NCBI GenBank assembly: GCA_000997355.1 | Contig: LCBS01000004.1 | Coordinates: forward strand, 1 to 47,478 | Source of the DNA: a candidate division WWE3 bacterium GW2011_GWB1_41_6 | GTDB lineage: Bacteria > Patescibacteriota > WWE3 > UBA101185 > UBA10185 | Length of the DNA stretch: 47,478 nt | Reading direction: 5' to 3' | Shown here: positions 3,780 to 37,840 of the stretch, in pieces | Numbering within the stretch: position 1 is the stretch's first letter | Layout of the letters: each line of letters begins with the position of its first letter | Notes under the pieces: generated by a model | Told to the model about the DNA's origin: nothing | Seen by the model: only the letters and a program-made list of their open reading frames with translations | The model's database searches: none | Program-made: the position numbers and the translations under genes

Positions 3780-3790
3780 CTAATAAAATA

Positions 3791-3828
3791 CCCCTGTTAT
3801 TTCTTATATAACAGGGGTAACATTTTTT
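3791..3828. terminator. bidirectional hairpin terminator between convergent genes
   Basis: Perfect 10-bp stem cccctgttat (3791-3800) / ataacagggg (3808-3817) with a 7-nt loop. An A-tract lies upstream and TTTTTT downstream, so it can serve both the MFS gene (+) and 3827..4183 (-). Confidence 0.65.
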
Positions 3829-4183
3829 ACCATTTCTTTAGCTTGTTACCAGGAATCCACCAAAACACTGCAGGAAGTAACTTTCTGGAAAACCATATCC
3901 ACACTTTCAAATGTAGAGGTGTGAATTTTTTGTAAGCGAGTTCTCCGTGAAACATAGTCGTAGCACAGCCAAGTTTATTTGGGTTTAACCTACCCTTTGT
4001 TGCAGCGATCTTCATAGCCTCACCTGTCATTTTAGTGCCGCCCCAACCCCCGCCACAGTGGCGGACACATCCGCCGGGAGGGCAACCCAATCGTACTTTT
4101 CTTCTGTTATGTTTGGGTCCGTGCCAAACCTCTACTATTTGTACTGGTTTTTTGCTCACTGTTTTCTCTCCTTTGGTTAACAA
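3827..4183 (-). CDS. hypothetical Cys/Gly/Trp-rich basic protein
   Basis: 118-aa ORF containing LGCPPGGCVRHCGGGWGG and a Trp-rich C-terminus (VWIWFSRKLLPAVFWWIPGNKLKKW). It ends at the bidirectional terminator. No family recognised. Confidence 0.55.
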   Translation of the reverse strand: MLTKGEKTVSKKPVQIVEVWHGPKHNRRKVRLGCPPGGCVRHCGGGWGGTKMTGEAMKIAATKGRLNPNKLGCATTMFHGELAYKKFTPLHLKVWIWFSRKLLPAVFWWIPGNKLKKW

Positions 4184-4270
4184 TAGTTAATTTATTGATA
4201 TAACTATATGTATAACAATAGAGTTATTCTAGCTTGGAGCTGCCACAAATAAAAGAAGTTTAGAAAACCA

Positions 4271-4299
4271 TTGACGAGTTTCATTTGTAAGTTAATACT
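4271..4299 (+). promoter_or_regulatory. candidate sigma70-type promoter (orphan)
   Basis: TTGACG (4271-4276), 17-nt spacer, AATACT (4294-4299). No plus-strand ORF follows, only a terminator about 60 nt downstream. Confidence 0.25.
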
Positions 4300-4381
4300 T
4301 ACCTTAGTGTCCAATTATAAATGTCTAAAAATCAATAGACTATATCGTTTTTTATCGTAACCGCTACCAAGCGGTTTTTTT
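4300..4381 (+). ncRNA. candidate small RNA (~75-85 nt) between the orphan promoter and the orphan terminator
   Basis: It is bounded by the promoter-like element at 4271-4299 and the terminator at 4359-4381. The longest plus-strand ORF I found by eye between 4184 and 4360 is 14 codons. Its 5-prime end (cttaccttagtgtccaatt, 4298-4316) matches the 3-prime end of repeat copy B (5109-5127) at 17 of 19 positions. Confidence 0.25.
4359..4381 (+). terminator. orphan Rho-independent terminator
   Basis: Stem aaccgct (4359-4365) / agcggtt (4370-4376), ACCA loop, then a run of 7 T (4375-4381) and a second T-run at 4386-4392. No annotated plus-strand gene lies upstream. Confidence 0.6.
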
Positions 4382-4730
4382 ACGCTTTTTTTGGATACTT
4401 GATGAAGATAAGGACAATAGTATTAATTAACCTGAGGCTGGGTTCCCACCTTGTTAACGGAGAAGTTGATTATGCAGTACTACATTATTTGCATAGTTTA
4501 CTTCTCCGTGTCCTTTTATCAAAAGATATTTCATTTGAATATATTTTTCAGAGACTTGATGTAATAAAGTTGTATAAAAAGGGCAAAGCTAGGACGGGCT
4601 GTATTTGATAGATGGGAAGAATGAAAGCTTTCGCAGTCAGACTGGGTTCCCGTTTCTCATTTACATTCCACGATCCTAGCTTCTAATCCCTCTTTTCTTC
4701 TTATCCTTCTGGTCATCGTAAATTAGGGCC

Positions 4731-4800
4731 AAGGGTTTAGCAACTTTCGCCGCTAGTGGGGATTGTAGGGCAGTTAAGCTCTAGTTTTCCTTTACCTTAG
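4731..4800. repeat. non-coding repeat, copy A (70 nt)
   Basis: aagggtttagcaactttcgccgctagtggggattgtagggcagttaagctctagttttcctttaccttag. It differs from copy B by 3 substitutions and one 1-nt indel. Stop codons occur in all six frames across the unit. Confidence 0.85.
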
Positions 4801-4874
4801 ATCCTAAGATTCATTGGATTTGACTCCGCTGAAGTAGCTTTGAGTTACCTCTTAGCTATCTACGATTTTTGCTT

Positions 4875-4902
4875 ACTATCCTTTGCAGGTGTCACAAACT
4901 GA
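4875..4902. repeat. diverged partial copy of the repeat leader segment
   Basis: actatcctttgcaggtgtcacaaactga aligns with actatcctccaggtgtaacaactga (5021-5045), the sequence immediately 5-prime of copy B. A weaker match, ttatccttctggtcat, precedes copy A (4701-4716). Confidence 0.6.
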
Positions 4903-5049
4903 CTTCGCCGTTAAGCTAGGTCCGGATTTGGTTCTTCCAACGGATGGCCTGACGGTCATTCGCTTCAGTTTACCGACGAAAACTATGAATTTCTTCAATG
5001 CTTTCGATGCCTTTTTGTAAACTATCCTCCAGGTGTAACAACTGATCTT

Positions 5050-5118
5050 AAGGGTGTAGCAACTTTCGCTGCTAGTGGGGATCGTAGGGCAGTTAAGCTC
5101 TAGTTTCCTTTACCTTAG
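5050..5118. repeat. non-coding repeat, copy B (69 nt)
   Basis: aagggtgtagcaactttcgctgctagtggggatcgtagggcagttaagctctagtttcctttaccttag. It lies 319 nt downstream of copy A in direct orientation. Confidence 0.85.
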
Positions 5119-5459
5119 TGTTCAATTCCAAAGATTACCGTCGGCAACCGAAGTCGCTTTTGGCTCCCTGGGAGTGTCATTGAGTTTCCTCGCAGACTCT
5201 GTTACGTATTCTGTTGTCAAGAGAGACGTGGAGGTAAATATACTCGGTAATGAATTAATGTCAAGCTTTTACATATTTTATGTTATCGGATTTTATAATT
5301 ATACTGTGGTTGAAACTATATTAGGCGGTATCAGACTAAAAGATCTTTTATTAAAATACAATATTTGCACAAAATAATAGTTCAATTTTTATTTTTTGCT
5401 AATAAAATGTTTGAGTTTAACTGTTTCTTTTAACAAATTACAACCAAGCCTATAGCTCC

Positions 5460-5488
5460 TTGCAAAGTTTTGACATGTCTGCTATACT
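5460..5488 (+). promoter_or_regulatory. candidate sigma70-type promoter for the DEAD-box helicase gene
   Basis: TTGCAA (5460-5465), 17-nt spacer, TATACT (5483-5488). This would give a ~140-nt AT-rich leader before the start at 5632. Confidence 0.35.
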
Positions 5489-5631
5489 AACTCGTTAAAA
5501 GATAGCGCTATAAATCTGCTTGATATTAGTTTGTACGTTTAGCACAGATAAAAGATATCCAGAATTTCATTATAAATGTATCTTTTCACTAGCCTACTAC
5601 AATTTTAGGCAGTTTTATTGCGCTATTAAAT

Positions 5632-6846
5632 ATGTATATGAGAAACAGATATCAAAGAGGGGAACGAAGATCCAATTTTTCAAGATTCCCCAATAAAAAT
5701 AAGAATAACGCACAATACGCATGGTCTGAAAAAGACCTGGTAAAGTCTATCGAATACTCTAAAAAAAACCGCCGTTTTGAGCCTGAAACCAACTATACAC
5801 CAGTGAGTTGTTTTGACGATCTCCCAATAAACAGACAACTAAAAATAAATATTAAGAACAAAGGTTTTAAAACTGCAACTCCTATACAAGACCAGGCAAT
5901 ACCTCATATTCTAGAGGGAAAAGACTTGATCGGAATTGCGAACACTGGAACAGGTAAAACTGCTGCGTTCTTGATACCTTTATTAGATAAAACCTCAAAA
6001 GACCGCAACCAAAAAGTATTAATTGTTGCTCCTACCAGAGAACTTGCTGAACAAATTAGTAATGACATGAAAGCACTGTCTCAAAATATGCATATATACT
6101 CTGCACTGATAATCGGAGGGACAAGTATGTTCAAACAGATCCATGATCTGAAACGCGACCCGGAAATCGTTATAGGCACACCCGGAAGGTTAAAAGACCT
6201 TGTTAATAAGAAAATCCTTGACCTGTCACAATACAATAATGTAGTTCTTGATGAAACCGACAGAATGGTTGATATCGGCTTTGTAAACGAAATAAAATTC
6301 TTTATCTCCTTGCTTCCCAAACAAAGACAGTCATTGTTCTTCTCAGCCACTGTTTCAAAGAAAGTCCAGGACATATTGGCAGCCTTCGTTCACGATCCGA
6401 TAACAGTAAGTGTGAAGAAACATGATACCTGTGCAAATATCTACCAGGATATAGTACGCGTCTCAAAAAACCAACGAAAGGTTGACACATTGATCCAGCT
6501 TTTGACGCAAAAAGAGTTCAATAAAGTGATAGTTTTTGGAAATACCAAATGGGGAATCCAAAAGTTAACTGACGAACTTATACACAACGGTCTTAGAGCA
6601 GATGCTATTCACGGCGATAAAAGACAAAACCAAAGACAGTCTATACTTCAAAAGTTCAAGAGAAGTGAGATTAGTGTTCTCTTGGCAACAGATGTTGCTG
6701 CAAGAGGACTTGATATCAGCGATGTAAGCCACGTTATCAATTACGAACTTCCAATGTCCTACAATGACTACGTTCACAGAATCGGAAGAACCGGCAGGGC
6801 AGACAAGAACGGCATCGCTTTAACATTCGTAAGTGACTTCAATTAA
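5632..6846 (+). CDS. DEAD-box ATP-dependent RNA helicase (motif II variant DETD)
   Basis: Q motif TATPIQ, motif I ANTGTGKT, Ia PTRELA, II DETD, III SAT, V ARGLD, VI HRIGRTGR. It has a basic N-terminal extension. The start could also be the ATG at 5638. Confidence 0.93.
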   Translation: MYMRNRYQRGERRSNFSRFPNKNKNNAQYAWSEKDLVKSIEYSKKNRRFEPETNYTPVSCFDDLPINRQLKINIKNKGFKTATPIQDQAIPHILEGKDLIGIANTGTGKTAAFLIPLLDKTSKDRNQKVLIVAPTRELAEQISNDMKALSQNMHIYSALIIGGTSMFKQIHDLKRDPEIVIGTPGRLKDLVNKKILDLSQYNNVVLDETDRMVDIGFVNEIKFFISLLPKQRQSLFFSATVSKKVQDILAAFVHDPITVSVKKHDTCANIYQDIVRVSKNQRKVDTLIQLLTQKEFNKVIVFGNTKWGIQKLTDELIHNGLRADAIHGDKRQNQRQSILQKFKRSEISVLLATDVAARGLDISDVSHVINYELPMSYNDYVHRIGRTGRADKNGIALTFVSDFN

Positions 6847-7709
6847 AACAACCACTTGTAATAAGGGAGGCTGTAATACACTACCTCTCCGTTAAATTCC
6901 CGTTTATAATGTGAATACTCCTCCCATTTTTTGCTTAGATTTTTTAAACGGACATCACTGACCCCACCAAGGTCCATTTTCTTATAACCTAACGGGATAA
7001 AGTAGGGGATACAGTCATATAAGAGTTTATAACCACCCGTACTTTTTTGACCTAGTTCAGTCGTACCGCTATGCACACCCCAAACCCCACCACAATGACC
7101 AAGGAATAGTTTTGTTCCGAGAAGCCGGTCTTTTGAGTCAAAAACATTACATATGAAAGAATCAACCCCAAAAACATTTACTTTTTTTTGGATGTCCTTC
7201 AGACCGAGAATCGTAAACTTCTTTTTCTTTGCCCGTAATGACAATGTTTTATAAAAATCCAGCGTCTCGGCCGGTGTAGGGTTTCTGACTATTTCCGTAT
7301 AACACCCATCTCTGTTAGCTTTATTTATTGAGTACCTGCAGCTTCTGGTAAAAAGTGAAAATAGGTTTTCCGCTCCTAAAGACAAATCCAAAAACACGGT
7401 ATTCGGTATTAATTCTATTTGATTCGTCTGCTTATAACCACGATCTTCCAAAAAGCTGACATCTTGTTTATGATTAGGAGATATTTTTAATATATGTACA
7501 TCACTTCTACGGCAAATGTTTTCTATTTCCTCAAGATCCTTTGAGGATAACTCGGAGGGAATTTGAAGATTAGCCCTACAGGTTAAAAAGTTTCCATTAA
7601 TCCTTAATATAGAACCATTTCTAGTCTTAATGGACTTCCACCCGTATAATGCTAAATACTTGGACCAATTATCGGATTGTCGTATATCGGTTATTTCATT
7701 CAAGTACAA
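6843..7709 (-). CDS. FemAB-family (peptidoglycan interpeptide-bridge aminoacyltransferase-like) protein
   Basis: 288-aa ORF whose overall pattern resembles FemX/FemAB GNAT-fold proteins (CRYSINKANRDG, GHCGGVWGVHSGTT..G...GGYKLLY). The assignment is from memory of the family and needs HMM confirmation. Confidence 0.6.
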   Translation of the reverse strand: MYLNEITDIRQSDNWSKYLALYGWKSIKTRNGSILRINGNFLTCRANLQIPSELSSKDLEEIENICRRSDVHILKISPNHKQDVSFLEDRGYKQTNQIELIPNTVFLDLSLGAENLFSLFTRSCRYSINKANRDGCYTEIVRNPTPAETLDFYKTLSLRAKKKKFTILGLKDIQKKVNVFGVDSFICNVFDSKDRLLGTKLFLGHCGGVWGVHSGTTELGQKSTGGYKLLYDCIPYFIPLGYKKMDLGGVSDVRLKNLSKKWEEYSHYKREFNGEVVYYSLPYYKWLF

Positions 7710-16950: not shown

Positions 16951-17880
16951 ATGTTTATGAATAAAAAAAGACTATTTTTCCTGTTTTTATTATTGTTAAT
17001 ATCCGTAACCACGCTATTTTTTAGAAAAGACTTAAATTCCCTTTATCAAAGAGTCGCATATTTCTCATTTTGTGAAAAACCTATCTTATACAGAATAGGG
17101 AACATAGATTCGCGCTTTGAACTTACTAAACAGGAGCTTATGGATAGAACGTCTACAGCCGCCGAGATCTGGAACAGGTCTTATGAAAACACACTGTTTG
17201 AGTACTCTCCGGAAGGGGACTTGGAGATTAATCTGGTCTTTGACGAAAGACAAACGCTTTTAAATAAGATAAACCGAATGAACGGCTCCGTTAGTGACGA
17301 GCGTAACTCACTTGAAAGCAGGATTGCAAATTTTAAAAGATGGCAAGAGGAAATCGAGCAGGAAATGGACGCTTTGAATAAGGAAATAGAATCCTGGAAC
17401 GATAAAGGGGGAGCTCCGCCTGAAAAATACGATGAACTGAACAGGAAACAAAAAGAGCTAAGGGTGGAGATCAATGAACTTAACAAAACCGCTCAAGAGC
17501 TAAACCAAACTACAACAAATATAAACCAACGCGTGACTAATCTGAACGAAACGATCTCATCTTTTAACTCTATACTGCAAGTTAAACCCGAGGAGGGGGT
17601 ATTCATTCCATACGAGAATAAGATAGAGGTTTACTTTTATACAAATGATGACGAACTTGTACATACCATTGCTCACGAAATGGGGCACGCTTTGGGCCTT
17701 GGGCATTTAAATCACACCGATGCTCTAATGAACCCGATAGTGTCGGAAAACACACAGCTTAGTAACGAAGACCTGTCACTATTAAATACATTCTGTTCGG
17801 AGCAGAATAGGTTCGAGTTGTTGAAAAACGACATGAGAACGCTTGTGAATAATTACATTACCAGAATCAATAAAAATTAA
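16951..17880 (+). CDS. membrane-anchored metzincin (matrixin-like) zinc protease with a coiled-coil insertion
   Basis: HEMGHALGLGH (HExxHxxGxxH, starting at nt 17674) followed by ALMNP (a Met-turn candidate). There is an N-terminal TM helix. A heptad-like, charged ~110-aa segment (about nt 17245-17586) lies between the N-terminal strands and the catalytic helix. Confidence 0.8.
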   Translation: MFMNKKRLFFLFLLLLISVTTLFFRKDLNSLYQRVAYFSFCEKPILYRIGNIDSRFELTKQELMDRTSTAAEIWNRSYENTLFEYSPEGDLEINLVFDERQTLLNKINRMNGSVSDERNSLESRIANFKRWQEEIEQEMDALNKEIESWNDKGGAPPEKYDELNRKQKELRVEINELNKTAQELNQTTTNINQRVTNLNETISSFNSILQVKPEEGVFIPYENKIEVYFYTNDDELVHTIAHEMGHALGLGHLNHTDALMNPIVSENTQLSNEDLSLLNTFCSEQNRFELLKNDMRTLVNNYITRINKN

Positions 17881-17955: not shown

Positions 17956-19401
17956 ATGAGTCATCGCCTGACCCGATTTACATTTGTAATAACGGTAATC
18001 ATCCCGCTTTTATTGCTGGTGTTTGGTGTTTTCACACAACTCGTCGAAGCAGCCCCCATTAATATCAACACTACATCCACAAATAACGCTACATATCCCG
18101 GAGTAATGAACCATATGGTTGTTACTTCGGATAATACTATTCACACTTTCTTGCAGTTAGGCACAGAAACTATGACTTGCGATGGTGCACCTACAAACGG
18201 TCTTGTATGGGTAATGTCAACAGATTCAGGCGCTACCTGGGATTGTCAGGGACAGTTATCTTCCGATACTACAAATTTAAAATTCGCTTCAGCCCAAAAG
18301 GACAGTTTTGATAACATTTATGTTGTTTATTCAGGAATTGATAATACCCTAAGCACTGCCTACGATGTTTTATATAGAAAACTCACAAAAGGCGCTGGCT
18401 CCACATGGACATTTGAGGATGAGCAGGTTCTACTGGACGGAACTGCCGCAGAATCCTACAGCTATGCAACAATCGCCATTGAGGGTACAACGAGGCTATG
18501 GGTCTCAGCAAGAATTGACGTACTGGTTTACTATTCCAACGGCTTTACTACAGCTCCATCATGGACACTTGGACATAAGAGGTTTTTTGAGAAAATATGG
18601 AGCTTTGATGGAACCTCCACATATACTGATGAAACTACTGATGCATCAAACCTAACAAGTGCTGATGTTACGATGGTTTCGGTACCTAACTCCGCAATTT
18701 ACTTTGGACATAGTACAAAATTCGATTCCATTGCATGGATGCTGTCAACAATCGGAGTCGCGGGAACAATAGACTGGGAATATTATAACGGTAGTACCTG
18801 GAAACAAATCGAAGGATTTCAGATAGATCAGGTGAACGGAAATTTTACCAGCGTTAACAACGGCTATATTAATTTCACTATTCCCACAGATTGGGCTACT
18901 ACTTCCATAAACGGTGAAGGGGGTTCTTACTACTATGTTAGGGCTAGGGCAGCAACAAACTTCACAACACCTCCCGTCGGTACGAGAGTTGCTTCTACGA
19001 TCGCTAATCCTTCTCAGCGGACAACAGGAGGTATTCCTTCTATTGTAAGGTTCGGTTCCAAAATTGGTTTGATGTTTTTGGACGGTACTACAAGCTACAC
19101 ATTTACTTTCCGTTACCGCGCTGATACGGATGCTTTGGGATTATGGAGCTATGAGACCTTCTCTCCCACAACCGCTTCGAACATGACCACAATTACAAAT
19201 TTCAGTGCAGTAGGCAACACAAATGGTCACATTTACGTAATGTTCTTTAAAACAGGTGCAAACGATGTTTTCTTTGAGTTCTATGATGGAAACTCATGGC
19301 ATGACAAGAGTACCCGCCTTGACGATAATGCTGTGATTAGTAACCTTGGCTTATCAACAGACGGGGTGAATGTATGGGTGTTCTATACGGACAATATCTA
19401 A
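17956..19401 (+). CDS. giant surface protein, N-terminal segment (signal peptide, BNR-like region with one inserted WEYYNG/YYYVRAR module), terminated by an in-frame TAA
   Basis: Signal peptide MSHRLTRFTFVITVIIPLLLLVFGVFTQLVEAAP. Asp-box STDSGATW (18217-18240). Module signature WEYYNG (18775) ... GEGGSYYYVRARA (about 18928-18948). It shares its frame with the next ORF. Confidence 0.85.
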   Translation: MSHRLTRFTFVITVIIPLLLLVFGVFTQLVEAAPININTTSTNNATYPGVMNHMVVTSDNTIHTFLQLGTETMTCDGAPTNGLVWVMSTDSGATWDCQGQLSSDTTNLKFASAQKDSFDNIYVVYSGIDNTLSTAYDVLYRKLTKGAGSTWTFEDEQVLLDGTAAESYSYATIAIEGTTRLWVSARIDVLVYYSNGFTTAPSWTLGHKRFFEKIWSFDGTSTYTDETTDASNLTSADVTMVSVPNSAIYFGHSTKFDSIAWMLSTIGVAGTIDWEYYNGSTWKQIEGFQIDQVNGNFTSVNNGYINFTIPTDWATTSINGEGGSYYYVRARAATNFTTPPVGTRVASTIANPSQRTTGGIPSIVRFGSKIGLMFLDGTTSYTFTFRYRADTDALGLWSYETFSPTTASNMTTITNFSAVGNTNGHIYVMFFKTGANDVFFEFYDGNSWHDKSTRLDDNAVISNLGLSTDGVNVWVFYTDNI

Positions 19402-19503
19402 ACAGGAAATGTTTTCTATAAAAAAATCAACACACCCTTCGATGCCTGGTATAGACCTTACACAGATGACGGTGATCACGGAGATGCGGAGAAATTTGGT
19501 CAC

Positions 19504-22500
19504 TTGGTGAACCCTTTCGACAAAGTATGGTTATACAGAAACAGCTCATATTCCGATAAAACAACTTTTAACTCTCAAACTAGCTTGCACAACCTTGATG
19601 ATTATATTGCTTACAACACGCCGGGATTTGCATATGTTCATAATGTTACCGAAGCTGCTTCATCTACAGCTAACGATACATATTTTGGAAGCGATGCATC
19701 CGAATGGACCGTATTCGGTTCACTTGAGCAGTTTACATCTTTATATTGGACGCTAGGAACTAACGGAACCGACGGAACTATGGACTGGCAGTACTGGAAT
19801 GGTAGTTCGTGGGCGAGTTTGACTTTAACTGAATCCAGTAACCCTAACTTCACAGCCGGTGGTTATGCCAAATTCTCGACCCCCGGCGATTGGGTTAAAA
19901 GAAGAATAGCGGACCCACTTAATTCACAGATGGATAATGGTGAGTTTTACTATGTTAGAGCCGCTGTAAATACACCTTACACTGTAGCCCCGAAAGGAAC
20001 AAAGTTCTACAAAGATATACTCCTTAAAGATGCGGGTGATATTGCATATTTTGGTGAGAATGGAACATTCGAAAGTGTTTCTTACAGCTTAAGCTACGAG
20101 GGTTCGGGTGGAACTGTTGTCTGGGAGTATTGGAATGGTGGTACCTGGACAACGCTTACGACTACTGCTTCATCTAACCCTAATTTTGAAAATGCAGGAT
20201 ATATTGATTTTTCTCCTCCCGGTGACTGGGCTGTGACTAGTGTGAACGGGGAGGGTTCCGCCTATTATTATGTGAGGGCTAGAGTAAGTGTTGCTTTTAC
20301 ACAATACCCATCGGATGCATTAGCCTCACCAAACCGTCAAATGAACAACATAATTGTATCCAACAATCCGGTTTCAGATACCATACATGTGGTCTGGACC
20401 CAAAATATTGCATCTCCTGCTACTATCAAATCCGACACCATATCCGTTACAACCGCAGCAACTCCGGCATCAGCAGAATTCATAAACAACAACCAGATAA
20501 CTTATACCGGCGGAGCGGACTCTGGTCTGGAAAACCTTGGTAATGAGAACTATATTAAGACAAGTGATGGAACACTTCACTTATTCACAACAACTTCCAA
20601 CCTTAGTGTTAAGTGCGGCAGTATATATACCGTAGGGCTATTGTACTATCAGTCAACTGACGGAAGCACATGGACGTGCCAGGGAGAGATAACGAACCAT
20701 CCATCAGCACTTGTACCTTCCGTAGCAAAGGACAGTTCCGACAATATTTACTTGGTCTATGCCAAGGCAGGACTAGGCACGTCCTCAGCTACACTGGACG
20801 CAGACCTATGGTTCAGAAAATTAACTTATTCGGGCGGCACATGGACCATAGGATCACAACGGGTTATAGCAGCTGGAGCAACGTCGACGCTTGGTTATGC
20901 CTTACCCTCTATAGTGGTCGAAGATACTGACAGAATTTGGGTTACAGCAACCATCGAAGATACTTCAAGAAACTATAATAGAACTGTTTTGTATTACTCT
21001 AGTGACCTGACAGATAATCCGACATGGACAGAATCGTACACAGGTATTTACTTTGACAAAGTATGGAGTTACTACTCAAGTGTATATTCTAATGAAACAA
21101 CAGACGCGGGTAATACTACAACGGCCGATGTCCAAATGGCAAAGAATACTGGCGACATTATTTATTTTGGCAGAACAGCACAGTTCAATCACGTTTCATG
21201 GAGTCTTTCTACAAATGGTACATCCACAGGAAGAGTAGCATGGGAGTATTACGATGGGGATTCATGGGAACTGTTAGCTCTTAACAGTGCTAATCCTTAT
21301 AGTACCGAAAACACACACTTTAACACAAGTACCTCGGTAATGTTTCCAGTACCGTCTGATTGGGCGACCACTTCAATAAATGGTGAAGGGGACTCCTACT
21401 ATTACGTTAGAGCCAGGGTTACTAACTCATACACAACAGCACCGGTTGGAACTATTATGATGAACGCATTTAGTAGCCCTGCTAATAATTTAGATGTGAC
21501 GGACGATAGTGCACAACTAGTGAGGTATGGAACAGATAAAGTTGCTGTCATATTCAGTGATGATAACTACCAGTACTATATGAGAACTAGAACCGATACG
21601 GATCCTGCAGGCCAATGGAGTGATCCGCCAACCAGGATAACTCCGCATGCGGATGGGGGAAATTTGTACGGTACAGACTTTAAAGCACTTGGAACCTCAT
21701 CAGGTAATATCCTCATGGTATACAAACAGTACTATTACAATCCCGAAATAAGATTTACCTATTATAACGGAGCCACATGGTCATTACCGGTAACTCTATT
21801 CTACAACACACCTTTAGACAGAAACTTCGAAGAGTACGGGCAGCTCATTGACCTTGCAACGGATGACACCAATGTGTGGGTTTTCTCCTATGACACATCA
21901 CAATTAACTTCCAAGGAATACACAAACAGAGACTGGCTTGGTACAACCGGGCAAGGGATACTTTCATATAAAAAGGGGGTTCCTCCCTTTACGTCTAGTG
22001 ATTTTGATGCCAATGCCACGCCTGTAATATCTTATAACGGATTCTTCGATAATGTATGGACCTTCGATTCTAGTGCTACTACGTATTCAAATAAAACAAG
22101 TGAAGCAATGTCCAAAGGGGAGCCTTCCCAGATATGGAGATACACAAACAGCACTTATACCGACTACGATCAGTACAGCATTGATATGGAGCCCTATTTC
22201 AGTCGGGCATGGACATACGCTTCAGGTGCATTCACCGATGCTACATACAATGTTGCACAAGCGGGATCGCCGTCGGCATCTACATTAATGACTTCGACAG
22301 GCGATATACTTTATCTAGGAAATGATAAACAGATAGATTCCGTAGGATGGACATTATCAACACCAGGCGCAGGCGGTACGGTAGAGTGGGAGTATTGGAA
22401 TGGTGCATCGTGGTCATCGTTGTCACTAATAAGCTCAAACAACATAAACCTTACAGGAAACGGTGATATTATCTTTACGGTTCCCGGTGACTGGGTTACT

Positions 22501-25500
22501 ACAACTCTAGGCTCTGATAATTCAGCAAAGTATTATATAAGGGCACGGGCAACCGGAAATTATTCAACACCTCCTGTCGAATCCTATCTAGGACCTAATG
22601 TCCCGTTAGCAGATAATGGTGACATAATTTATCTTGGCGGCGAAACTTCATTTTCATTCCTGATGTGGTACATAGAAAGACGCGGGGTTATAGCTGACGA
22701 CAGCTTTATCTGGGAGTATTGGAACGGTACTACATGGTCATCCCTCGAAAGCTACTATATCTGGCATGATTTCACACACGACTTCTCATCTTGGTCAGAT
22801 TTCCTGTTCTTCAACAAACCTGCCGACTGGGCAACAACATCAGTCAACGGAGAAGGTGGATCTTATTACTATGTCAGGGGAAGAGCTACCGCTGATTATT
22901 CAGAAATACCGTTCGGGACACTTGATTTCGAACTCGCAGGTGACCTTCCAATACCTGGAGATATTGACGATATAACATATTACGGTAAATCTACCAAATT
23001 CGAAACTGTTAACATGGATCAGATCGACGGACCTTCTACATATTACACGTCGAATGGCGCCAGGGGCGGCTCAGTAGTTTGGGAATATTATAACGGAAGC
23101 GCGTGGGCACCATTAACTAAATTTACGGAAGTCGCCGGTGCAAATTACTATGGTAGAGAGTATTGGCAGTATGTTAGCTTTAAACCACCCGGTGATTGGT
23201 CCACAACCGCAGTTAACGGTGAGGGTACTTCATACTACTATGTAAGGTCACGGGTAACTCAAGAATATTCGGACCCTCCGATACTATCACAAGTGTTAGC
23301 AGCGCAACCAACCACATGGGCTGTAGTTGAGAGTACTGTAGAATCTGAAGCCTATAACATTGCCTGGGTTGATGGGATGGCTAACACCGGTATAGCGGAC
23401 AATAATACCAATTATGTAGCCATCCGAGGGAATTTTATCGGTGGAGGCGGGGAGCCATCCAACACAACACCAAACAGTCCCTCTACCCTAACGCAGTACA
23501 AATCAGATGGAACAACCGACGAAACAACAGTTGTACTTAAGATGACTGTCAGCGATACAGATAATCCAGAGGTTCTGACACCTCAATTTGAAGTCCGGGA
23601 AGTCGGTACGGCTTTCTCAAATACCTCTACTAATACGGGATCTAATGTTAATTACTCAGGAACTCCTCTTACAGCAAGTGTGACTGTGAACGGGCTTGTG
23701 AACGACTCTTCATACCATTGGCAAGCCCGGGTCTGCGACGATGAAAGTGCTTGTTCTGCATGGGTCGCCTATGGAGGAAACCTCGAATCGGCCGCAGATT
23801 TTATTATCGACACCGGAGCCGTGGGTACGGGACCAACCGGCACGATAGTTATTAACAACGGTGACGGTTACACAGATTCGGTTGGTGTAACGCTAAGTTT
23901 AACTGTAGAAGACGATACAACAGCTGATGCCGACATAGACATGCTTCTCTCCAACGTATCTGATTTCGCCGGAGCGTCGTGGGAAGATTTTTCAGCAACA
24001 AGATTATGGACTCTTTCTTCAGGTGACGGCATAAAAACTGTATACGTAAAGTACAGAGATACCGACACAAATGAATCAAGTTCGTATAACGACACTATAA
24101 TACTGGATGCTAACAGGGCCCCTACAGGCAGGCTTGTTATCAATTCCGATAACGGGAAAGCATCAGGAGATTCCGCTGAATATACTAATGACCGTAGTGT
24201 CAAATTATACATATCGGTGGACCAAGATGGCGGTACCAAGGTTCAGCAAATGAAGATCTCTAACGATAAAAATTTCCGGGATGCGGATTGGGAATCATAT
24301 GCTGAAGAAAAGGACTGGAGGCTAACCAATAACGACGGATTAAAGACTGTATACATTAAAATCAGAGACGAAGCAGGTAACGAGTCGAACAGGTTCAGCG
24401 AATCAATTACCCTGGACACAACACCCCCCGAACTTCAGATAACACGAATCGAAACTGCACAAAGCAGCGGAGGTACCTACTACTCAACTTCTACAAACTT
24501 ATCTTTTTACGGTATTGCTGAAGCTGATTCCAAAGTGAAAATGGTATTAAACGGTTCAGCCGATACTAGTGAGACCGATGTCCTGGGCGATAAAAAATGG
24601 CAATTTACTGACACTACATTAAACAATGGAAATAATGGAGTTTTATTTGAAGCAAAAGATAACGCAAACAATAGGACCATATTAAGCGTACATGTCGTTG
24701 TAGATAGTTCGGGCGAATCCTTCCCGGATGAAGTTAACGAGCAGATCGGTTTACAGGTTCCTATTGGAAGTCCTATAAAAGAACCTAAACTTACTAATAT
24801 CACCACCCGCGAAGTAGTAGAAGATACAGACCTATGCTACAAACCTATGACCTACGAGGGTAAAGTGTTCGACTTTTTCACATTCGAAAAGAAAGTTAAA
24901 CTGCCAAAAGTGAACGGAACATTCTACGCTATCGAACCTGACGGCGAAGGAGGGTGGTTTATTGGCGGTAAATTCAATAAAGTCGGTAAGGAAATTGTGA
25001 GTAATGTTGTTCATATTTTACCGAACGGACAGGTTGACAAGAATTGGGCAGCGTTTATTGACGGCGAGGTATATACGATCGAATTAGATAAGCAAAATGA
25101 GATGGTGTACCTTGGCGGTAATTTTACTTATGTAAATGATATTCAGAAGAAGAATATAGCAGCCGTAAGCACAGAAACAGGTATACTAACTAAATTCAAC
25201 CCTAAAGTTAATTCAGTTGTACTCTCACTCGAAAAACATGTTTCCGAACCCACCCTGTACGCCGCGACATGTACCGGACCGGAGGTTATAGATCCGGCGA
25301 CTACCGAACCGTATTTTGACAGTGAACTTAGAGCTCCTACAATAAACACAGTCGATTATATATATGAACCACAGACCGGGACTTCGGTAGCGTTAATCTC
25401 CTGGGTAAACCCCGAAAGCGCACCTGTCAGTTATGTAGATGTAAGTACGGATCCCGACTTTAAGACTTATTACAACAAACATGTTCCTGGAACCGACAAT

Positions 25501-27003
25501 ACTGTGGGTCCGGTCGGTTTTGATAATACAAGTAAAACATCGACACAAGCAGAACTTACAATATACCCGGACTCCATATACTATGCCCGTTTGTATAATG
25601 GGGAACACAGCCCATCCACATCATTCTCAATTAAGTCAAAAAAGAACGCGGTAGACACCTACCCTCCCGAACCTCCAAAACCCGCCCAGGGACAAAAACC
25701 CGATGAAGACCTAAACGCCCCGTGGTTCATACTACCCGAGGGGATTGATATGAGCGAACCTGACGACACTCTGGTAACAATACTGTGGGTAAATCCCCAT
25801 AAGAAAGTAACATATGTAGATATAAGCACAGAACCGGAATTCGACGACTACTTCAATAAAAAAGTAACACCGTTTCCGGAGACTATGGCATCAGAAGGTT
25901 TCAGGCTGGAAGAAAGTACCACGCTTACGGAGTCGATCGGGGGTATGTTCGACACGCAAGATAAAGAACCTCCCGGCCAAGTCAAAAAACAGACTCAATT
26001 AAAATTAAGGCCGTATACAAGATATTACGTCAGACTTTACAACGGAAAGCATAGTCCGGTCACGTCGTTCGTTCTTCCGGAAATAACGGCCGAGCCGGAC
26101 ACAACAGTACCGGACGTTATTATCAATAAAACTTTGGACGAGTCAACAGTTCAACCTCCCACTACGACCGATCCAATACAGACAGTGACAGAAACTACAC
26201 TACCGGATACATCACAAGAAACACCAACGTACTCGTACGTTGAGGAGCCTAACTTCATTACAGTAGACACAGAAACTTCGGATGTTTCAGAAGGACCACC
26301 CGTAGGAGGCACAGTACTTGGCATCGCTTCAGACTCCAACACATCTCATATTTATATCGCCGGCTCGTTCAACGAGGTTATCAACGAACGGCGTGAACAG
26401 TTAGCCGCCATAGATACCTATAACACACAAACCACAGATTGGGACCCAAGCGCAAACGATTCCGTAACAAACATAGTTTACGAACCATCAGGTAATAAGA
26501 TCTACGCAGCAGGACTGTTTGATATGATCGGGGGCAAAAACAGAAACGGTGTTGCTCAAATAGATCCAAGAACTGGAGAGGTTACCAACTGGAACCCATA
26601 CTGCTACTGGTGGCTGATCCTTTCCATAGCGGCTTTTGTTATAACATCAATGTATTACGGCTTAATTGCCAATCAGGATGAAAGACCTTTCATGTGGTGG
26701 TTCGTTCCACTGCTTACCGGTATAGCAGCGTTATTAGGCGACCAGTATGCTCATAACTTCTACATCCCAACACGATACGATCACTTCATGTGGTTATTTG
26801 TACTCATAGCACTCGCAATCCCGTCTATTTCCTACATTTTGTACACAAAGAGGGATGAGAAGAAAAGAGTGAATAAAATATTCGGCGGACCAACTGCTCC
26901 TCAAGATACTGCCCAAAACACACCTCAAAACCCGGCTTCAGTACCTTACTTCCCATCACCACCACAGCCCATGCAGCCATCCATCCAACCCGGGATCTCA
27001 TAA
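19504..27003 (+). CDS. giant repeat-rich surface protein (2499 aa from the first start codon; the frame is actually open from 19402)
   Basis: It holds six WEYWNG...YYYVRAR modules, a second BNR-like region (STDGSTW, 20653-20673) and an HWQAR-type Ig/FN3-like domain. Two modules carry the signature (G)(I/L)KTVY(V/I)K.RD...NES, followed by TLDTTPPEL. Delta-60/DUF5122-like propeller blades are split by two FN3-like repeats. The C-terminus has three TM helices and a Pro/Gln-rich tail. There is no signal peptide at the TTG start. Confidence 0.9.
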   Translation: MVNPFDKVWLYRNSSYSDKTTFNSQTSLHNLDDYIAYNTPGFAYVHNVTEAASSTANDTYFGSDASEWTVFGSLEQFTSLYWTLGTNGTDGTMDWQYWNGSSWASLTLTESSNPNFTAGGYAKFSTPGDWVKRRIADPLNSQMDNGEFYYVRAAVNTPYTVAPKGTKFYKDILLKDAGDIAYFGENGTFESVSYSLSYEGSGGTVVWEYWNGGTWTTLTTTASSNPNFENAGYIDFSPPGDWAVTSVNGEGSAYYYVRARVSVAFTQYPSDALASPNRQMNNIIVSNNPVSDTIHVVWTQNIASPATIKSDTISVTTAATPASAEFINNNQITYTGGADSGLENLGNENYIKTSDGTLHLFTTTSNLSVKCGSIYTVGLLYYQSTDGSTWTCQGEITNHPSALVPSVAKDSSDNIYLVYAKAGLGTSSATLDADLWFRKLTYSGGTWTIGSQRVIAAGATSTLGYALPSIVVEDTDRIWVTATIEDTSRNYNRTVLYYSSDLTDNPTWTESYTGIYFDKVWSYYSSVYSNETTDAGNTTTADVQMAKNTGDIIYFGRTAQFNHVSWSLSTNGTSTGRVAWEYYDGDSWELLALNSANPYSTENTHFNTSTSVMFPVPSDWATTSINGEGDSYYYVRARVTNSYTTAPVGTIMMNAFSSPANNLDVTDDSAQLVRYGTDKVAVIFSDDNYQYYMRTRTDTDPAGQWSDPPTRITPHADGGNLYGTDFKALGTSSGNILMVYKQYYYNPEIRFTYYNGATWSLPVTLFYNTPLDRNFEEYGQLIDLATDDTNVWVFSYDTSQLTSKEYTNRDWLGTTGQGILSYKKGVPPFTSSDFDANATPVISYNGFFDNVWTFDSSATTYSNKTSEAMSKGEPSQIWRYTNSTYTDYDQYSIDMEPYFSRAWTYASGAFTDATYNVAQAGSPSASTLMTSTGDILYLGNDKQIDSVGWTLSTPGAGGTVEWEYWNGASWSSLSLISSNNINLTGNGDIIFTVPGDWVTTTLGSDNSAKYYIRARATGNYSTPPVESYLGPNVPLADNGDIIYLGGETSFSFLMWYIERRGVIADDSFIWEYWNGTTWSSLESYYIWHDFTHDFSSWSDFLFFNKPADWATTSVNGEGGSYYYVRGRATADYSEIPFGTLDFELAGDLPIPGDIDDITYYGKSTKFETVNMDQIDGPSTYYTSNGARGGSVVWEYYNGSAWAPLTKFTEVAGANYYGREYWQYVSFKPPGDWSTTAVNGEGTSYYYVRSRVTQEYSDPPILSQVLAAQPTTWAVVESTVESEAYNIAWVDGMANTGIADNNTNYVAIRGNFIGGGGEPSNTTPNSPSTLTQYKSDGTTDETTVVLKMTVSDTDNPEVLTPQFEVREVGTAFSNTSTNTGSNVNYSGTPLTASVTVNGLVNDSSYHWQARVCDDESACSAWVAYGGNLESAADFIIDTGAVGTGPTGTIVINNGDGYTDSVGVTLSLTVEDDTTADADIDMLLSNVSDFAGASWEDFSATRLWTLSSGDGIKTVYVKYRDTDTNESSSYNDTIILDANRAPTGRLVINSDNGKASGDSAEYTNDRSVKLYISVDQDGGTKVQQMKISNDKNFRDADWESYAEEKDWRLTNNDGLKTVYIKIRDEAGNESNRFSESITLDTTPPELQITRIETAQSSGGTYYSTSTNLSFYGIAEADSKVKMVLNGSADTSETDVLGDKKWQFTDTTLNNGNNGVLFEAKDNANNRTILSVHVVVDSSGESFPDEVNEQIGLQVPIGSPIKEPKLTNITTREVVEDTDLCYKPMTYEGKVFDFFTFEKKVKLPKVNGTFYAIEPDGEGGWFIGGKFNKVGKEIVSNVVHILPNGQVDKNWAAFIDGEVYTIELDKQNEMVYLGGNFTYVNDIQKKNIAAVSTETGILTKFNPKVNSVVLSLEKHVSEPTLYAATCTGPEVIDPATTEPYFDSELRAPTINTVDYIYEPQTGTSVALISWVNPESAPVSYVDVSTDPDFKTYYNKHVPGTDNTVGPVGFDNTSKTSTQAELTIYPDSIYYARLYNGEHSPSTSFSIKSKKNAVDTYPPEPPKPAQGQKPDEDLNAPWFILPEGIDMSEPDDTLVTILWVNPHKKVTYVDISTEPEFDDYFNKKVTPFPETMASEGFRLEESTTLTESIGGMFDTQDKEPPGQVKKQTQLKLRPYTRYYVRLYNGKHSPVTSFVLPEITAEPDTTVPDVIINKTLDESTVQPPTTTDPIQTVTETTLPDTSQETPTYSYVEEPNFITVDTETSDVSEGPPVGGTVLGIASDSNTSHIYIAGSFNEVINERREQLAAIDTYNTQTTDWDPSANDSVTNIVYEPSGNKIYAAGLFDMIGGKNRNGVAQIDPRTGEVTNWNPYCYWWLILSIAAFVITSMYYGLIANQDERPFMWWFVPLLTGIAALLGDQYAHNFYIPTRYDHFMWLFVLIALAIPSISYILYTKRDEKKRVNKIFGGPTAPQDTAQNTPQNPASVPYFPSPPQPMQPSIQPGIS

Positions 27004-35635: not shown

Positions 35636-37840
35636 TTATTTACAAGAGTTGTAGTAGTTTTGGAGCATGTTCACTTTATTCTGCCATACACTCTTCCAGT
35701 CGTTTTGAAGTATTCCTCCGGTGTCACTGGAGTTAGGATTCCAATCCCAGTAGAATGAGTTGCATATTTTCTTGGATTTAAAGTAGGAAACTATGGCATC
35801 CTGCCAGACTTTATCCTCGGAGACCCCTCCATTGCCATACTTACCACCCCATTCACCGGGAACTATAGTGTACCCTTTATCAGCCAGATACCCAAAGTGG
35901 GGATTCCATATCGCCGGCATGTTGCTGGGGAAATTAGATGCTGAGAAATATGATTGCCAGTAAACATCGGGTCCATAGACGTGGGGGGAGAAAACCAGCT
36001 TATCTGCGGGAATATAAGCGTTGTTGACCGAAGCGCATGCTACCGGTTCAAGGTTTCCTCCCCACCAATGTGCCGTCGATGAAGTGCAGGACGGGTTGTC
36101 CTGCACCCCCTGAACGAATATTAATAAATTAGGATTAGCATTTAAAACTTCTTTGCCGGCTTTTTCAGCTGCGATTTTCCAGTCTGTCTTAACGTCGCCG
36201 GTTCCCCATGTTGCTGCTCCCTGAGGTTCGTTTTTGATATCCATTCCCATAAAGTATGGGAGACTCTTGTACCTGTTGGCAACATTTTTCAGATCGTTTA
36301 TCCATTGCTGTTCTGAGTACGAGCCTGTATACCAAAGGCTTGTAATTGTTTTACAATCAGGCGTGTGGTGATCCATTAGTATATACATCCCCTGGTCGTT
36401 GATTTCTTTTACCACCTTGTCCATTATTTGCAGACTGTTTAGACCCCGCAAGTCGTCATTTTTTGAATAATCTATCGATGTTGGTGTTTTGCCTTGTAAA
36501 GTCGCAGGGCAAAAAGGTACCCTAACGGCATTGAATCCGGTGTTTTTTATCTGGGTGACCATTTCTTTCCAGTTTCGCTGCCATAATCCATGCACTACAT
36601 TCGCACTCGTTTCAAACCCGAACCAGCTGACACCTTTTAGCTGTACAGGACTTCCATTCCTATATATCACATTCTTACTGGCTTTATACGTACCTTCAGA
36701 GGAAGCCGGAGCCTGGTCTGGTGTGGGCTGCTGAGGAGCAGGTAGTTTATCGGGCTCCGGCTGAGTGGTTGAATCTTGGTTTTCCAGTGTAAAGTAAGTA
36801 CCTCCGCTAATAGAGATATTATCGATAAATAGAGAAATGTTTGTATGTTCGCTTCCGTTATGAATAGCAATACCTTTAATTGGCCTCATACTTGGGTTAA
36901 GTTCCGAAATCTTTATACTGTAGTTTTTCCATGTACTTCCCGGCTGTCCGCCCATTTTATCCAAACTCTTAAACTCGGCGAAAGACATATCATCAGCACC
37001 GAACAATGCTATTTTGTAATTATTACCGGTCTTTTCGGTTTTCAACGAGAAATTGACTGTTGAGTAGCCGGATACATCCATCTGTTCTTTTGTATGAACA
37101 TAGAACGCTGCCCAAAGCGCAGTTTGTTTAAATTCGATCAAGTCGGTAAATGAGCTCCTCCCACCCCATGACCAATCGGACCACTTACTATTTAGTGAGT
37201 TTTCAAATATCAGATAGTTATTGCTTGCCGAGTCGGTACTTGAATTAGAATTTGAAACGGGGGCAGTTTCCGTTTGCGTTTCAAATGAAATATCGTCAAT
37301 AAATATTGCCGAATCGTTGATACCTTTTCCTTCTTGGATCGCAACACCTTTGATTTCTTTTGTTTCGGTTTTTAATTTATCAAGAGGAATATCTACCTTA
37401 GTCCACTTATTTGGTGCAAGTCCGTCCGTGTATTCACTAACCGTAAATTCTGTATTCAATTTTTTATTATATTTATCGAAAAATAGAACACGGAAGTCCT
37501 GACCGGATTTTGTGGGATAAAGGAAAAACCGGAAAGTTTTATATCCATCAATATTCCGGATCTGTTCATTGTGGAAGTACAATCCTCCCCACGCACCGGA
37601 AGTATAATTAATAGACTTTTCTCCGGTGCGGGTTGGATTGGAATTCTTAAAATTGACGCTGCTTTTCCAGGACCAATTTTCCCATCCCTGTGCAACATCG
37701 TCAGTATAAATCGGGCGTTGGCTAATTACGGACTCTTGTGCGTCTACTTTTTTTGCTACTTGGCTAAGTATAAAAAAAGAAGCAAAAAGTGTGAGCACTA
37801 GTAAAGCGGCTTTTTTTGATGTTACGTTAGTAACTTTCAT
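35636..37840 (-). CDS. secreted GH5 endoglucanase (cellulase) with two tandem N-terminal CBM-like modules
   Basis: Signal peptide. Two paralogous ~140-aa modules (W.NWSW / WSDWSW ... IKG(V/I)AI ... (I/L)FIDxIS) at about 37283-37711 and 36806-37219, then a Pro/Gln linker. The GH5 catalytic domain has the acid/base motif MDIKNEP and the nucleophile motif PGEWGG. Confidence 0.9.
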   Translation of the reverse strand: MKVTNVTSKKAALLVLTLFASFFILSQVAKKVDAQESVISQRPIYTDDVAQGWENWSWKSSVNFKNSNPTRTGEKSINYTSGAWGGLYFHNEQIRNIDGYKTFRFFLYPTKSGQDFRVLFFDKYNKKLNTEFTVSEYTDGLAPNKWTKVDIPLDKLKTETKEIKGVAIQEGKGINDSAIFIDDISFETQTETAPVSNSNSSTDSASNNYLIFENSLNSKWSDWSWGGRSSFTDLIEFKQTALWAAFYVHTKEQMDVSGYSTVNFSLKTEKTGNNYKIALFGADDMSFAEFKSLDKMGGQPGSTWKNYSIKISELNPSMRPIKGIAIHNGSEHTNISLFIDNISISGGTYFTLENQDSTTQPEPDKLPAPQQPTPDQAPASSEGTYKASKNVIYRNGSPVQLKGVSWFGFETSANVVHGLWQRNWKEMVTQIKNTGFNAVRVPFCPATLQGKTPTSIDYSKNDDLRGLNSLQIMDKVVKEINDQGMYILMDHHTPDCKTITSLWYTGSYSEQQWINDLKNVANRYKSLPYFMGMDIKNEPQGAATWGTGDVKTDWKIAAEKAGKEVLNANPNLLIFVQGVQDNPSCTSSTAHWWGGNLEPVACASVNNAYIPADKLVFSPHVYGPDVYWQSYFSASNFPSNMPAIWNPHFGYLADKGYTIVPGEWGGKYGNGGVSEDKVWQDAIVSYFKSKKICNSFYWDWNPNSSDTGGILQNDWKSVWQNKVNMLQNYYNSCK

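Follow-up and report, generated by a model that had tools for sequence, protein, structure and literature searches.

The 47,478-nt window analyzed here, the stretch of contig LCBS01000004.1 from the candidate division WWE3 bacterium GW2011_GWB1_41_6, encodes a giant protein that carries seven copies of a module of about 100 amino acids (aa). Through profile comparison and structure prediction, we identify this module with high confidence as homologous to a domain found in the baseplate wedge of contractile injection systems (CISs) and in a phage nozzle. We also lean towards the broader reading that this homologous, mobile domain is carried on a giant surface protein, where it would serve multivalent adhesion.

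Seven copies of one module

The initial annotation described seven paralogous modules of ~100 aa, and every landmark that it listed is found where it was placed: the YFG/YLG motif at nt 18700, 19681, 20047, 21163, 22312, and 22630; W(E/Q)Y(W/Y)(N/D)G at nt 18775, 19786, 20122, 21241, 22387, 22711, and 23080; YYYVR at nt 18928, 20263, 21397, 22864, and 23233; and FDKVW-type leaders at nt 19516, 21052, 22045, and 22198. A profile of the diverse family, searched against all six reading frames of the window, likewise returned exactly seven copies, all in frame +0 and with independent E-values (i-E) of about 1e-26 to 1e-33; the best non-module match anywhere in the window had E=0.66. The module cores are listed below, together with features from AlphaFold2 (AF2) models and their predicted local distance difference test score (pLDDT).

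18688..18990, + strand: module 1 core (i-E 1.2e-33; AF2 pLDDT 91.6), between the blades of putative propeller 1
19696..20004, + strand: module 2 core (i-E 8.1e-26), the most divergent copy, with the NGEG loop replaced
20032..20313, + strand: module 3 core (i-E 1.9e-30), without a leader, directly after module 2
21148..21456, + strand: module 4 core (i-E 2.9e-31), inside putative propeller 2
22297..22584, + strand: module 5 core (i-E 1.6e-31)
22615..22920, + strand: module 6 core (i-E 2.3e-26)
22963..23295, + strand: module 7 core (i-E 1.9e-27)

The original coordinates of the modules stand, but the two annotated open reading frames (ORFs) that hold them, ORF A (17956-19401, 481 aa) and ORF B (19504-27003, 2,499 aa, TTG start) on the same strand, are one frame broken by a single TAA. 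The leader reported before several modules is also present, preceding modules 1, 2, 4, and 5, while modules 3, 6, and 7 directly follow the preceding module; in many family members, however, it belongs to the domain itself, and the full unit is ~135 aa.

An alignment of the seven segments contains 14 invariant columns, and identity to copy 1 is 38-45%. Between the WxYxxGxxW and FxxPxDW strands, the loops of the copies differ freely in both length and sequence. At the DNA level, the copies share 60-82% identity in their best-conserved motifs of 48-61 nt, and nothing else is detectable. Because identity is this low even in the best motifs, we interpret the copies as old duplicates kept by purifying selection on the protein rather than as an assembly artifact.

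Homology to phage-nozzle and injection-system baseplate domains

A profile built from the seven copies already reaches Afp11 at E=0.04. With a profile of 42 diverse module sequences, residues 532-632 of LME-1 orf18 (9efk_M) are matched at E=5.3e-14 over profile positions 2-101, and two Baseplate-J-like chains and Afp11 follow at E about 1e-3. Among module-bearing ORFs, P0108 and five more exceed the TIGR02243 cutoff and match the phrog_6 baseplate wedge family (TIGR02243 scores of 168-358 bits for P0108, L055, L067, L074, and L070, relative to a cutoff of 155.8); in these carriers, the modules lie N-terminal to the Baseplate-J core. A profile from the TIGR02243 modules alone recovers 9gtp_1K (8.5e-9), Cis11/All3317 residues 818-910 (1.2e-6), orf18 (1.9e-6), Afp11 residues 221-317 (3.9e-5), Alg11 residues 682-759 (5.6e-4), and 9rce_A (2e-3). 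Compared directly with these TIGR02243 modules by HHalign, the seven window modules align over 95 columns with a probability of 99.2% (E=3.4e-19).

The predicted fold points to the same proteins. Modeled with AF2 on a 12-sequence alignment, the module is an eight-stranded beta-sandwich (pLDDT 91.6; predicted TM-score [pTM] 0.82); a compact beta-sandwich was what the initial annotation had guessed from the pattern of conserved residues. With this predicted structure as the Foldseek query, the top four matches in PDB, all at prob 1.00, are all tail-machine proteins. The best is LME-1 portal-tail chain M (9efk_M; query TM-score [TMq] 0.78, root-mean-square deviation 2.2 Å), and the next are the PVC baseplate 6j0n_J, the Anabaena CIS baseplate 7b5h_AH, and the PlPVC1 baseplate 9qgl_A (TMq 0.68-0.71). 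Jelly-rolls of the carbohydrate-binding module (CBM) families CBM32 and CBM6 and of GOLD lie further down with non-significant scores (TMq 0.44-0.52; E 0.1-1). Four viral models in BFVD matched at E<1e-3, none of them named. Overall, the HHalign probability, the profile matches to solved chains, and the agreeing fold make the homology well supported.

The window module is of the same sequence family and fold as domains of the CIS baseplate wedge, specifically Afp11 (6RAO, ~221-317), Cis11 (7B5H, ~818-910), Alg11 (7AEB, ~682-759), and 9GTP chain 1K, and the two sets have WEYWNGxxW...PxD(W/M)...W(I/V)RAR landmarks in common. The protein around it is different. It is an unrelated host protein without the Baseplate_J/TIGR02243 core or a CIS gene context, and neither ORF A nor ORF B matched TIGR02243 or Baseplate_J in searches whose positive controls passed. 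It also features seven copies of the module, relative to one to three in baseplate proteins, and keeps a subfamily NGEGxSYYY loop and the leader.

The nozzle protein orf18 of LME-1, a T7-like Legionella phage (PDB 9EFK chain M), resembles ORF A in combining a beta-propeller, which in ORF A is a predicted one, with this sandwich domain. It forms, however, a hexameric channel in the virion and has a single module besides its platform and tip domains, whereas the window protein is a predicted membrane-anchored, multi-domain giant with putative Asp-box propellers of the sialidase type, and the TM-score across the whole unit is as low as 0.25. Only its propeller-plus-module part resembles 9efk_M, and neither a PHROG match for ORF A nor phage neighbors were found to place the protein among nozzles.

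The literature numbers these baseplate domains and gives them neither name nor function. In AlgoCIS, the domains of Alg11 are numbered I-VI and only domain IV (residues 278-643) is termed CBM-like (PMC8894135); the module match in Alg11 lies outside that domain. The Anabaena CIS is described as having merely "extra domains" in the baseplate (PMC8894136), and the LME-1 nozzle protein was identified as hexameric and not dissected (PMC12407071). A full-text literature search for the motif strings WEYWNG, WEYYNG, WEYWDG, and YYYVRAR returned no papers.

Absence from curated families

No model in Pfam, NCBIfam, or PHROGs covers the module, whether in the seven copies, both ORFs, 42 diverse modules, or 100+ relatives. 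The initial annotation, which could not assign the module to any domain family, was therefore right with regard to curated family models; homologous copies nonetheless sit unnamed in cryo-electron microscopy (cryo-EM) structures (LME-1 orf18, Afp11, Cis11/All3317, Alg11, and 9gtp_1K). The family is new to curated databases yet visible in deposited structures.

The initial annotation had named a confident match to an already described domain, such as a CBM or immunoglobulin (Ig)-like family, as what would overturn the module's novelty, and the Pfam scan returned neither. CBM models (F5_F8_type_C, CBM_6, and others) found no match in the 7+42 module instances even at E<=1 to 10, and Ig-like models (Big, FN3, and I-set) found none on the modules. 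The galactose-binding-like CBMs (CBM32/discoidin and CBM6) are jelly-roll beta-sandwiches of a size similar to the module, and the weak Foldseek matches to CBM-like structures (4zxe_A, prob 0.98, TMq 0.50; CBM6 2cdp; CBM32 4a42) would be compatible with a common jelly-roll topology but are not specific for it. The module differs from them in that these matches fall at E 0.1-1, no Pfam CBM model applies, and no sugar- or Ca2+-binding residues were identified. Separately, accessory domains of the beta-galactosidase 8q2h_A (residues 1066-1134 and 1583-1606) gave a partial profile match (E=0.003) with a similar "YWDGTAWKDV" strand, a hint that the module and discoidin/CBM32-like sugar-binding domains may be very distantly linked. 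We did not accept membership in CBM32/discoidin on weak fold scores and this one partial match.

Ig-like decoration domains (Big_2, I-set, and FN3; on the tail tube, Hoc, and other proteins) of phage virions are thought to give weak accessory adhesion. Like them, the module is a small beta-sandwich promiscuously fused to virion proteins and present in bacterial surface proteins; unlike them, it represents another sequence family and fold, and its top structural neighbors are jelly-roll-like. The window protein belongs to none of the TIGR02243/Baseplate_J, nozzle, CBM32/CBM6, and Ig-like families, as a defining feature of each was looked for and not found. With the first two it has one domain in common, and its mode of action is plausibly like that of phage Ig-like decorations and of CBMs.

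One giant gene with an in-frame stop

The joined frame and its terminal hydrophobic segments are as follows.

17956..27003, + strand: putative giant surface protein, ORF A (481 aa) plus ORF B (2499 aa), ~3,015 codons in the same frame with one stop
19399..19401, + strand: single in-frame TAA between ORF A and ORF B, codon 482 (frame analysis)
17962..18066, + strand: N-terminal hydrophobic segment, aa 3-37, putative signal peptide or signal anchor (Kyte-Doolittle; AF2 helix 3-25)
26611..26850, + strand: two C-terminal hydrophobic helices, putative membrane anchor (codons 2886-2906 and 2943-2965 of the joined frame; hydropathy)

The 102 nt between the two ORFs (19402-19503) translate to TGNVFYKKINTPFD...NPFDKVW, and the FYKK..PFD linker encoded there is the segment that follows the last propeller blade in relatives. 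ORF B, as annotated from its TTG start, has no signal sequence. In Woesebacteria and Saccharibacteria, the relatives (3,224 and 3,202 aa, respectively) are each encoded by one uninterrupted ORF and feature N-terminal anchors, and a C-terminal helix arrangement like that of the window protein recurs in WWE3 and Gottesmanbacteria relatives (L016 and L013). Given one frame, a coding 102-nt linker, and single-ORF relatives with anchors, the locus is, or formerly was, one giant gene, and we conclude that all seven modules sit, or once sat, on a single giant protein that is predicted to be exported and membrane-tethered. The TAA itself could be a sequencing error, a recent nonsense mutation, or a readthrough site. 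Recoding of TAA was rejected as an explanation, since the joined frame of 3,015 codons has only this one stop and all other ORFs read normally with table 11.

Domain architecture around the modules

The following features surround the module cores.

18088..18585, + strand: putative beta-propeller 1, N-terminal blades, including the Asp-box STDSGATW at 18217-18240 (AF2 and Foldseek; weak BNR_2)
18583..18687, + strand: leader 1 (FFEKIWSF...YTDETTDAS...DV), family-profile positions 29-53, conserved across family classes
19003..19398, + strand: putative beta-propeller 1, C-terminal blades (alignments, AF2 model)
19516..19695, + strand: leader 2 (FDKVWLY...YSDKTT...) (motif and family profile)
20458..21048, + strand: putative beta-propeller 2, N-terminal blades, paralogous to aa 32-215 of ORF A (ORF A/B alignment)
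21052..21147, + strand: leader 4 (FDKVWSY...YSNETTDAG...DV) (motif and family profile)
21466..22038, + strand: putative beta-propeller 2, C-terminal blades (alignments)
22045..22296, + strand: three tandem leader-like motifs (FDNVW.., QIWRY.., FSRAW..) (translation, motif search)
23296..26610, + strand: remaining, putatively extracellular region with Ig-like repeats, DUF5122-type propeller repeats, and Pro/Thr-rich linkers (sub-threshold Pfam matches only)

A larger repeat unit of ~480 aa is also present: ORF A aa 32-479 and ORF B aa 319-797 align with an identity of 35% (E 8e-83). As modeled by AF2, ORF A is all-beta (pLDDT 74.9, pTM 0.71). Taken whole, it finds its best PDB match in the LME-1 nozzle (Foldseek E=8.7e-7, 350 columns, TMq 0.25), followed by many six-bladed propellers of sialidase/neuraminidase-type glycoside hydrolases (GHs) at E 1e-5 to 1e-4 and low TM; we attribute the low TM to the inserted module and to the model's pLDDT. 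The Asp-box STDSGATW at ORF A aa 88-95 (S88-x-D90-x-G92-x-T94-W95) is kept in relatives, and Pfam BNR_2 matches ORF A weakly (E=0.079).

In ORF A, ORF B 319-797, and the relative P0149, the module lies between the predicted N- and C-terminal blades. In most other relatives (alignment including P0154, P0155, P0131, P0146, and P0156), it follows a complete propeller. The arrangement in the window is a variant produced by domain insertion or else the tandem repeat in a shifted phase. Before module 5, the leader-like motifs FDNVWTF..., QIWRYTNSTYTD..., and FSRAWTYASGAFTD... stand in tandem with no module cores between them. Outside the modules, Big_13 matches ORF B aa 1662-1734 (nt 24487-24705) at E=8e-5, under the cutoff, and there is a weak DUF5122 match at nt 26494-26568.

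Distribution and carrier proteins

The module belongs to a widespread family, with relatives in the candidate phyla radiation (CPR). An exhaustive hidden Markov model (HMM) search of cluster representatives (protein clusters at 50% identity) identified 7,356 at E<=1e-3, of which 3,126 reach <=1e-10 and 148 reach <=1e-30, and a single protein can hold as many as eight module copies; a word-indexed search with module profiles had given 5 matches and then 1, which is misleadingly few by comparison. Among the best 150 matches, 31 have window-type propeller flanks and are typically giant proteins with units ~540 aa apart, 12 belong to a class of 420-580 aa that joins two or three modules to a conserved C-terminal domain, and one is a baseplate protein. 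Most of the remainder are without a Pfam domain, and a few carry PSII_BNR, Sortilin-Vps10, Kelch, CBM96, or LamG.

The closest relatives, at 47-55% identity, derive from Woesebacteria, Daviesbacteria, Saccharibacteria, Gottesmanbacteria, WWE3, and other Patescibacteria metagenome-assembled genomes (MAGs) among species-representative genomes. These closest cellular relatives are giant proteins with four modules ~540 aa apart and N-terminal anchors. The best matches of this one protein make Patescibacteria the most likely origin of the window. Remoter copies occur in Dehalococcoidia, Ignavibacteria, Myxococcota, Burkholderiales, haloarchaea, and others. One Patescibacteria giant, P0007 (HVZ66924.1; contig DASZRC010000012.1, L011), combines four propeller-plus-module units with an M23 domain at aa ~205-325 that matches zoocin A, lysostaphin, and LytM at E=1e-10; its NCBI name is peptidoglycan DD-metalloendopeptidase family protein. 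By homology, the M23 domain suggests that some such proteins attack the walls of other cells. A Halobacteriales MAG (CAYVGY010000005.1, L022) encodes a 1,293-aa ORF (3580-7461) with two modules and a Ycf48/BNR-type propeller; the propeller-plus-module pairing therefore recurs beyond bacteria.

Viral sequences are also carriers. In IMG/VR, 267 stretches encode a relative, on ORFs of 234-1,581 aa, and the carriers match PHROG or Pfam families for major tail/tube, tail sheath, baseplate wedge, minor tail, tail assembly, "tail protein," virion structural, and minor head proteins. Fusion to this many different virion protein families supports the interpretation that the module behaves as a promiscuous add-on that decorates exposed virion parts. 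A tblastn search of 50,697 GenBank phage records with a module plus leader, and with the phage-type P0084, returned no match; cultured, annotated phages are therefore without close relatives at single-sequence sensitivity.

Three further observations concern the carriers. First, the 420-580-aa class (P0027, P0050, P0075, P0079, P0082, P0084, P0107, P0113, P0127, P0132, and P0072) ends in a C-terminal domain of ~100 aa with the pattern ...SGSxADSxFLLxNxTxG...TWTK...LVQxxEDGSTEF..., and ORFs of ~440 aa that are frequent on IMG/VR contigs (about ten, viral loci L110-L161) may be members; P0027, P0084, and L110 have no PHROG or Pfam match. Second, P0016 (4,023 aa) and P0148 (2,897 aa) give 17 and 9 partial matches, respectively, to only the middle of the module profile (positions ~84-128) at a spacing of ~155 aa, and these repeats may be a different family with the same WxYxxGxxW strand. 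Third, MAGs labeled "uncultured Gammaproteobacteria" or "Pseudomonadales" (L009, L012, L015, L017, L019-L021, L027, and L049) encode CPR-type giants at 42-51% identity, and their contigs may be mis-binned or mislabeled Patescibacteria.

A putative adhesion array and its alternatives

We infer that the giant protein would be exported and held at the cell surface by its N-terminal signal or anchor and its C-terminal anchor. There, the seven modules, together with the propellers, could make up a multivalent array that binds a polymer or protein on the surface of another cell, probably an episymbiont's host. An array of this kind would resemble giant adhesins as well as the accessory Ig-like and CBM-like domains that decorate phages. 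It is suggested by the exposed fusion partners, the tandem arrays, the co-occurrence with propellers, CBM96, LamG, and M23, and the conserved subfamily loop. We place adhesion or ligand binding at about even chances as the function of the module itself. If the modules do bind, a glycan is a possible, though somewhat doubtful, ligand.

Several points weigh against this proposal. The in-frame stop leaves ORF B without a signal peptide, and the locus could be a pseudogene; the signal peptide and membrane helices are called from hydropathy alone. For the modules, we identified neither a binding site nor a ligand nor a conserved patch on the surface, and their invariant residues (G, W, Y, P, and F) look like fold determinants. 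Resemblance to genuine CBMs is weak (E 0.1-1), and the CBM and Ig models of Pfam give no match. In the solved assemblies, moreover, the homologous domain may serve protein-protein contacts such as fiber docking or wedge packing.

The main alternative, which we consider unlikely, is that the modules dock proteins: they would hold a trimeric fiber, a neighboring subunit, or a partner adhesin, and the CPR copies would recruit partners or self-assemble into a surface layer or appendage with no direct contact to a target cell. In T7 gp12, a jelly-roll "fiber dock" on the outer surface joins the end of the propeller to the platform (PMC6702177), and residues 532-632 of LME-1 orf18 occupy the same position, after the propeller and before the C-terminal ~185 residues. 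Afp11/12-type proteins are the anchor points for fibers in CIS baseplates (PMC12923769, PMC8894135), and the conserved residues look structural, unlike a sugar-binding site. The LME-1 module is equated with the fiber dock from position only, however, and the domain also occurs on tail tube, sheath, and head proteins where no fiber docks, which fits a generic decoration better. Likewise, no fiber-like or partner gene is evident beside the giant gene, and arrays with as many as eight tandem copies are seen more typically in adhesins of the avidity type.

Quite improbable, in our view, is that the sandwich is a passive spacer or stabilizer that binds no specific ligand and serves to extend long extracellular proteins and virion parts, stiffen them, or make them resistant to proteases. 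The invariant positions are aromatics of the core, Gly, and Pro, the inter-strand loops vary freely among the seven copies, and the domain tolerates insertion into many unrelated scaffolds, all of which would suit a spacer. Five of the seven copies, however, retain the DWATTS(V/I)NGEGxSYYYVR loop, as do relatives in other phyla and on viral contigs, although DNA identity is 60-82%, and this retention argues for selection on more than the core. The association with propellers, CBM96, LamG, and an M23 peptidase also fits targeting better.

Finally, we regard it as very improbable that the window gene is itself part or remnant of a prophage or CIS: the module's best structural matches all come from phage or CIS tails, and the LME-1 nozzle is the closest structure to the complete ORF A model, but ORFs A and B match no TIGR02243, Baseplate_J, or PHROG family, the neighbors are cellular (MgtE, a matrixin-like protease, CorA, DsbB, S4, C39, a DEAD-box helicase, and GH5), and orthologous giant genes with signal anchors recur in many Patescibacteria genomes.

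Implications for phages, injection systems, and ultra-small symbionts

With at least 7,356 clusters and no entry in Pfam, NCBIfam, or PHROGs, the module accounts for unannotated sequence in thousands of phage tail, injection-system, and giant CPR proteins. A defined family would improve the annotation of viral and CPR dark matter and would name domains that are merely numbered in the cryo-EM papers on Afp, PVC, AlgoCIS, the Anabaena CIS, and LME-1. The annotation value is high; the link between phage or CIS hardware and CPR giant proteins is suggestive, and no new principle is demonstrated.

The adhesion proposal also offers a concrete candidate for the attachment of episymbionts to their hosts, namely giant, putatively anchored proteins with seven modules, sialidase-like propellers, and, in one relative, an M23 peptidase. 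Since the module occurs on engineerable injection systems and phage tails, its ligand could matter for retargeting. More speculatively, and with a low probability, the CPR propeller-plus-module unit may share ancestry with the propeller-plus-dock of podophage nozzles and with the accessory domains of CIS baseplates. If so, either episymbiotic Patescibacteria, along with some archaea and Chloroflexota, built host-attachment and wall-attack proteins from the receptor hardware of phage tails, or phages drew on such proteins for their own. On this reading, the module would be the marker of a "cell-surface engagement" toolkit common to phages, injection systems, and ultra-small symbionts.

Genomic neighborhood

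Ten neighboring ORFs encode MgtE, a matrixin-like protease, CorA, DsbB, ribosomal protein S4, a C39 peptidase-TPR protein, and unknowns, and a DEAD-box helicase and a GH5 endoglucanase are located farther off in the window. No phage or CIS genes (sheath, tube, spike, or gp25-like) were found near the giant gene, with family libraries run on part of the window, and the window contains no tRNA genes or Rfam families. Its G+C content is about 35-45%. Judged by gene content, the window is cellular DNA and not a phage or CIS locus; the gene context and the missing core families led us to reject classification as either a CIS or a prophage.

The matrixin-like zinc metalloprotease (16951-17880, + strand; Peptidase_M10 E=4e-9) features a long coiled-coil insert and ends 75 nt upstream of the giant gene, with which it may be co-transcribed on the same strand. 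On the opposite strand, 35636-37840 encodes a 734-aa protein with an N-terminal CBM-like region and a C-terminal GH5 domain very similar to the major extracellular endoglucanase of Xanthomonas (4tuf_A, E=5e-141), a notable enzyme if the genome is a reduced CPR genome.

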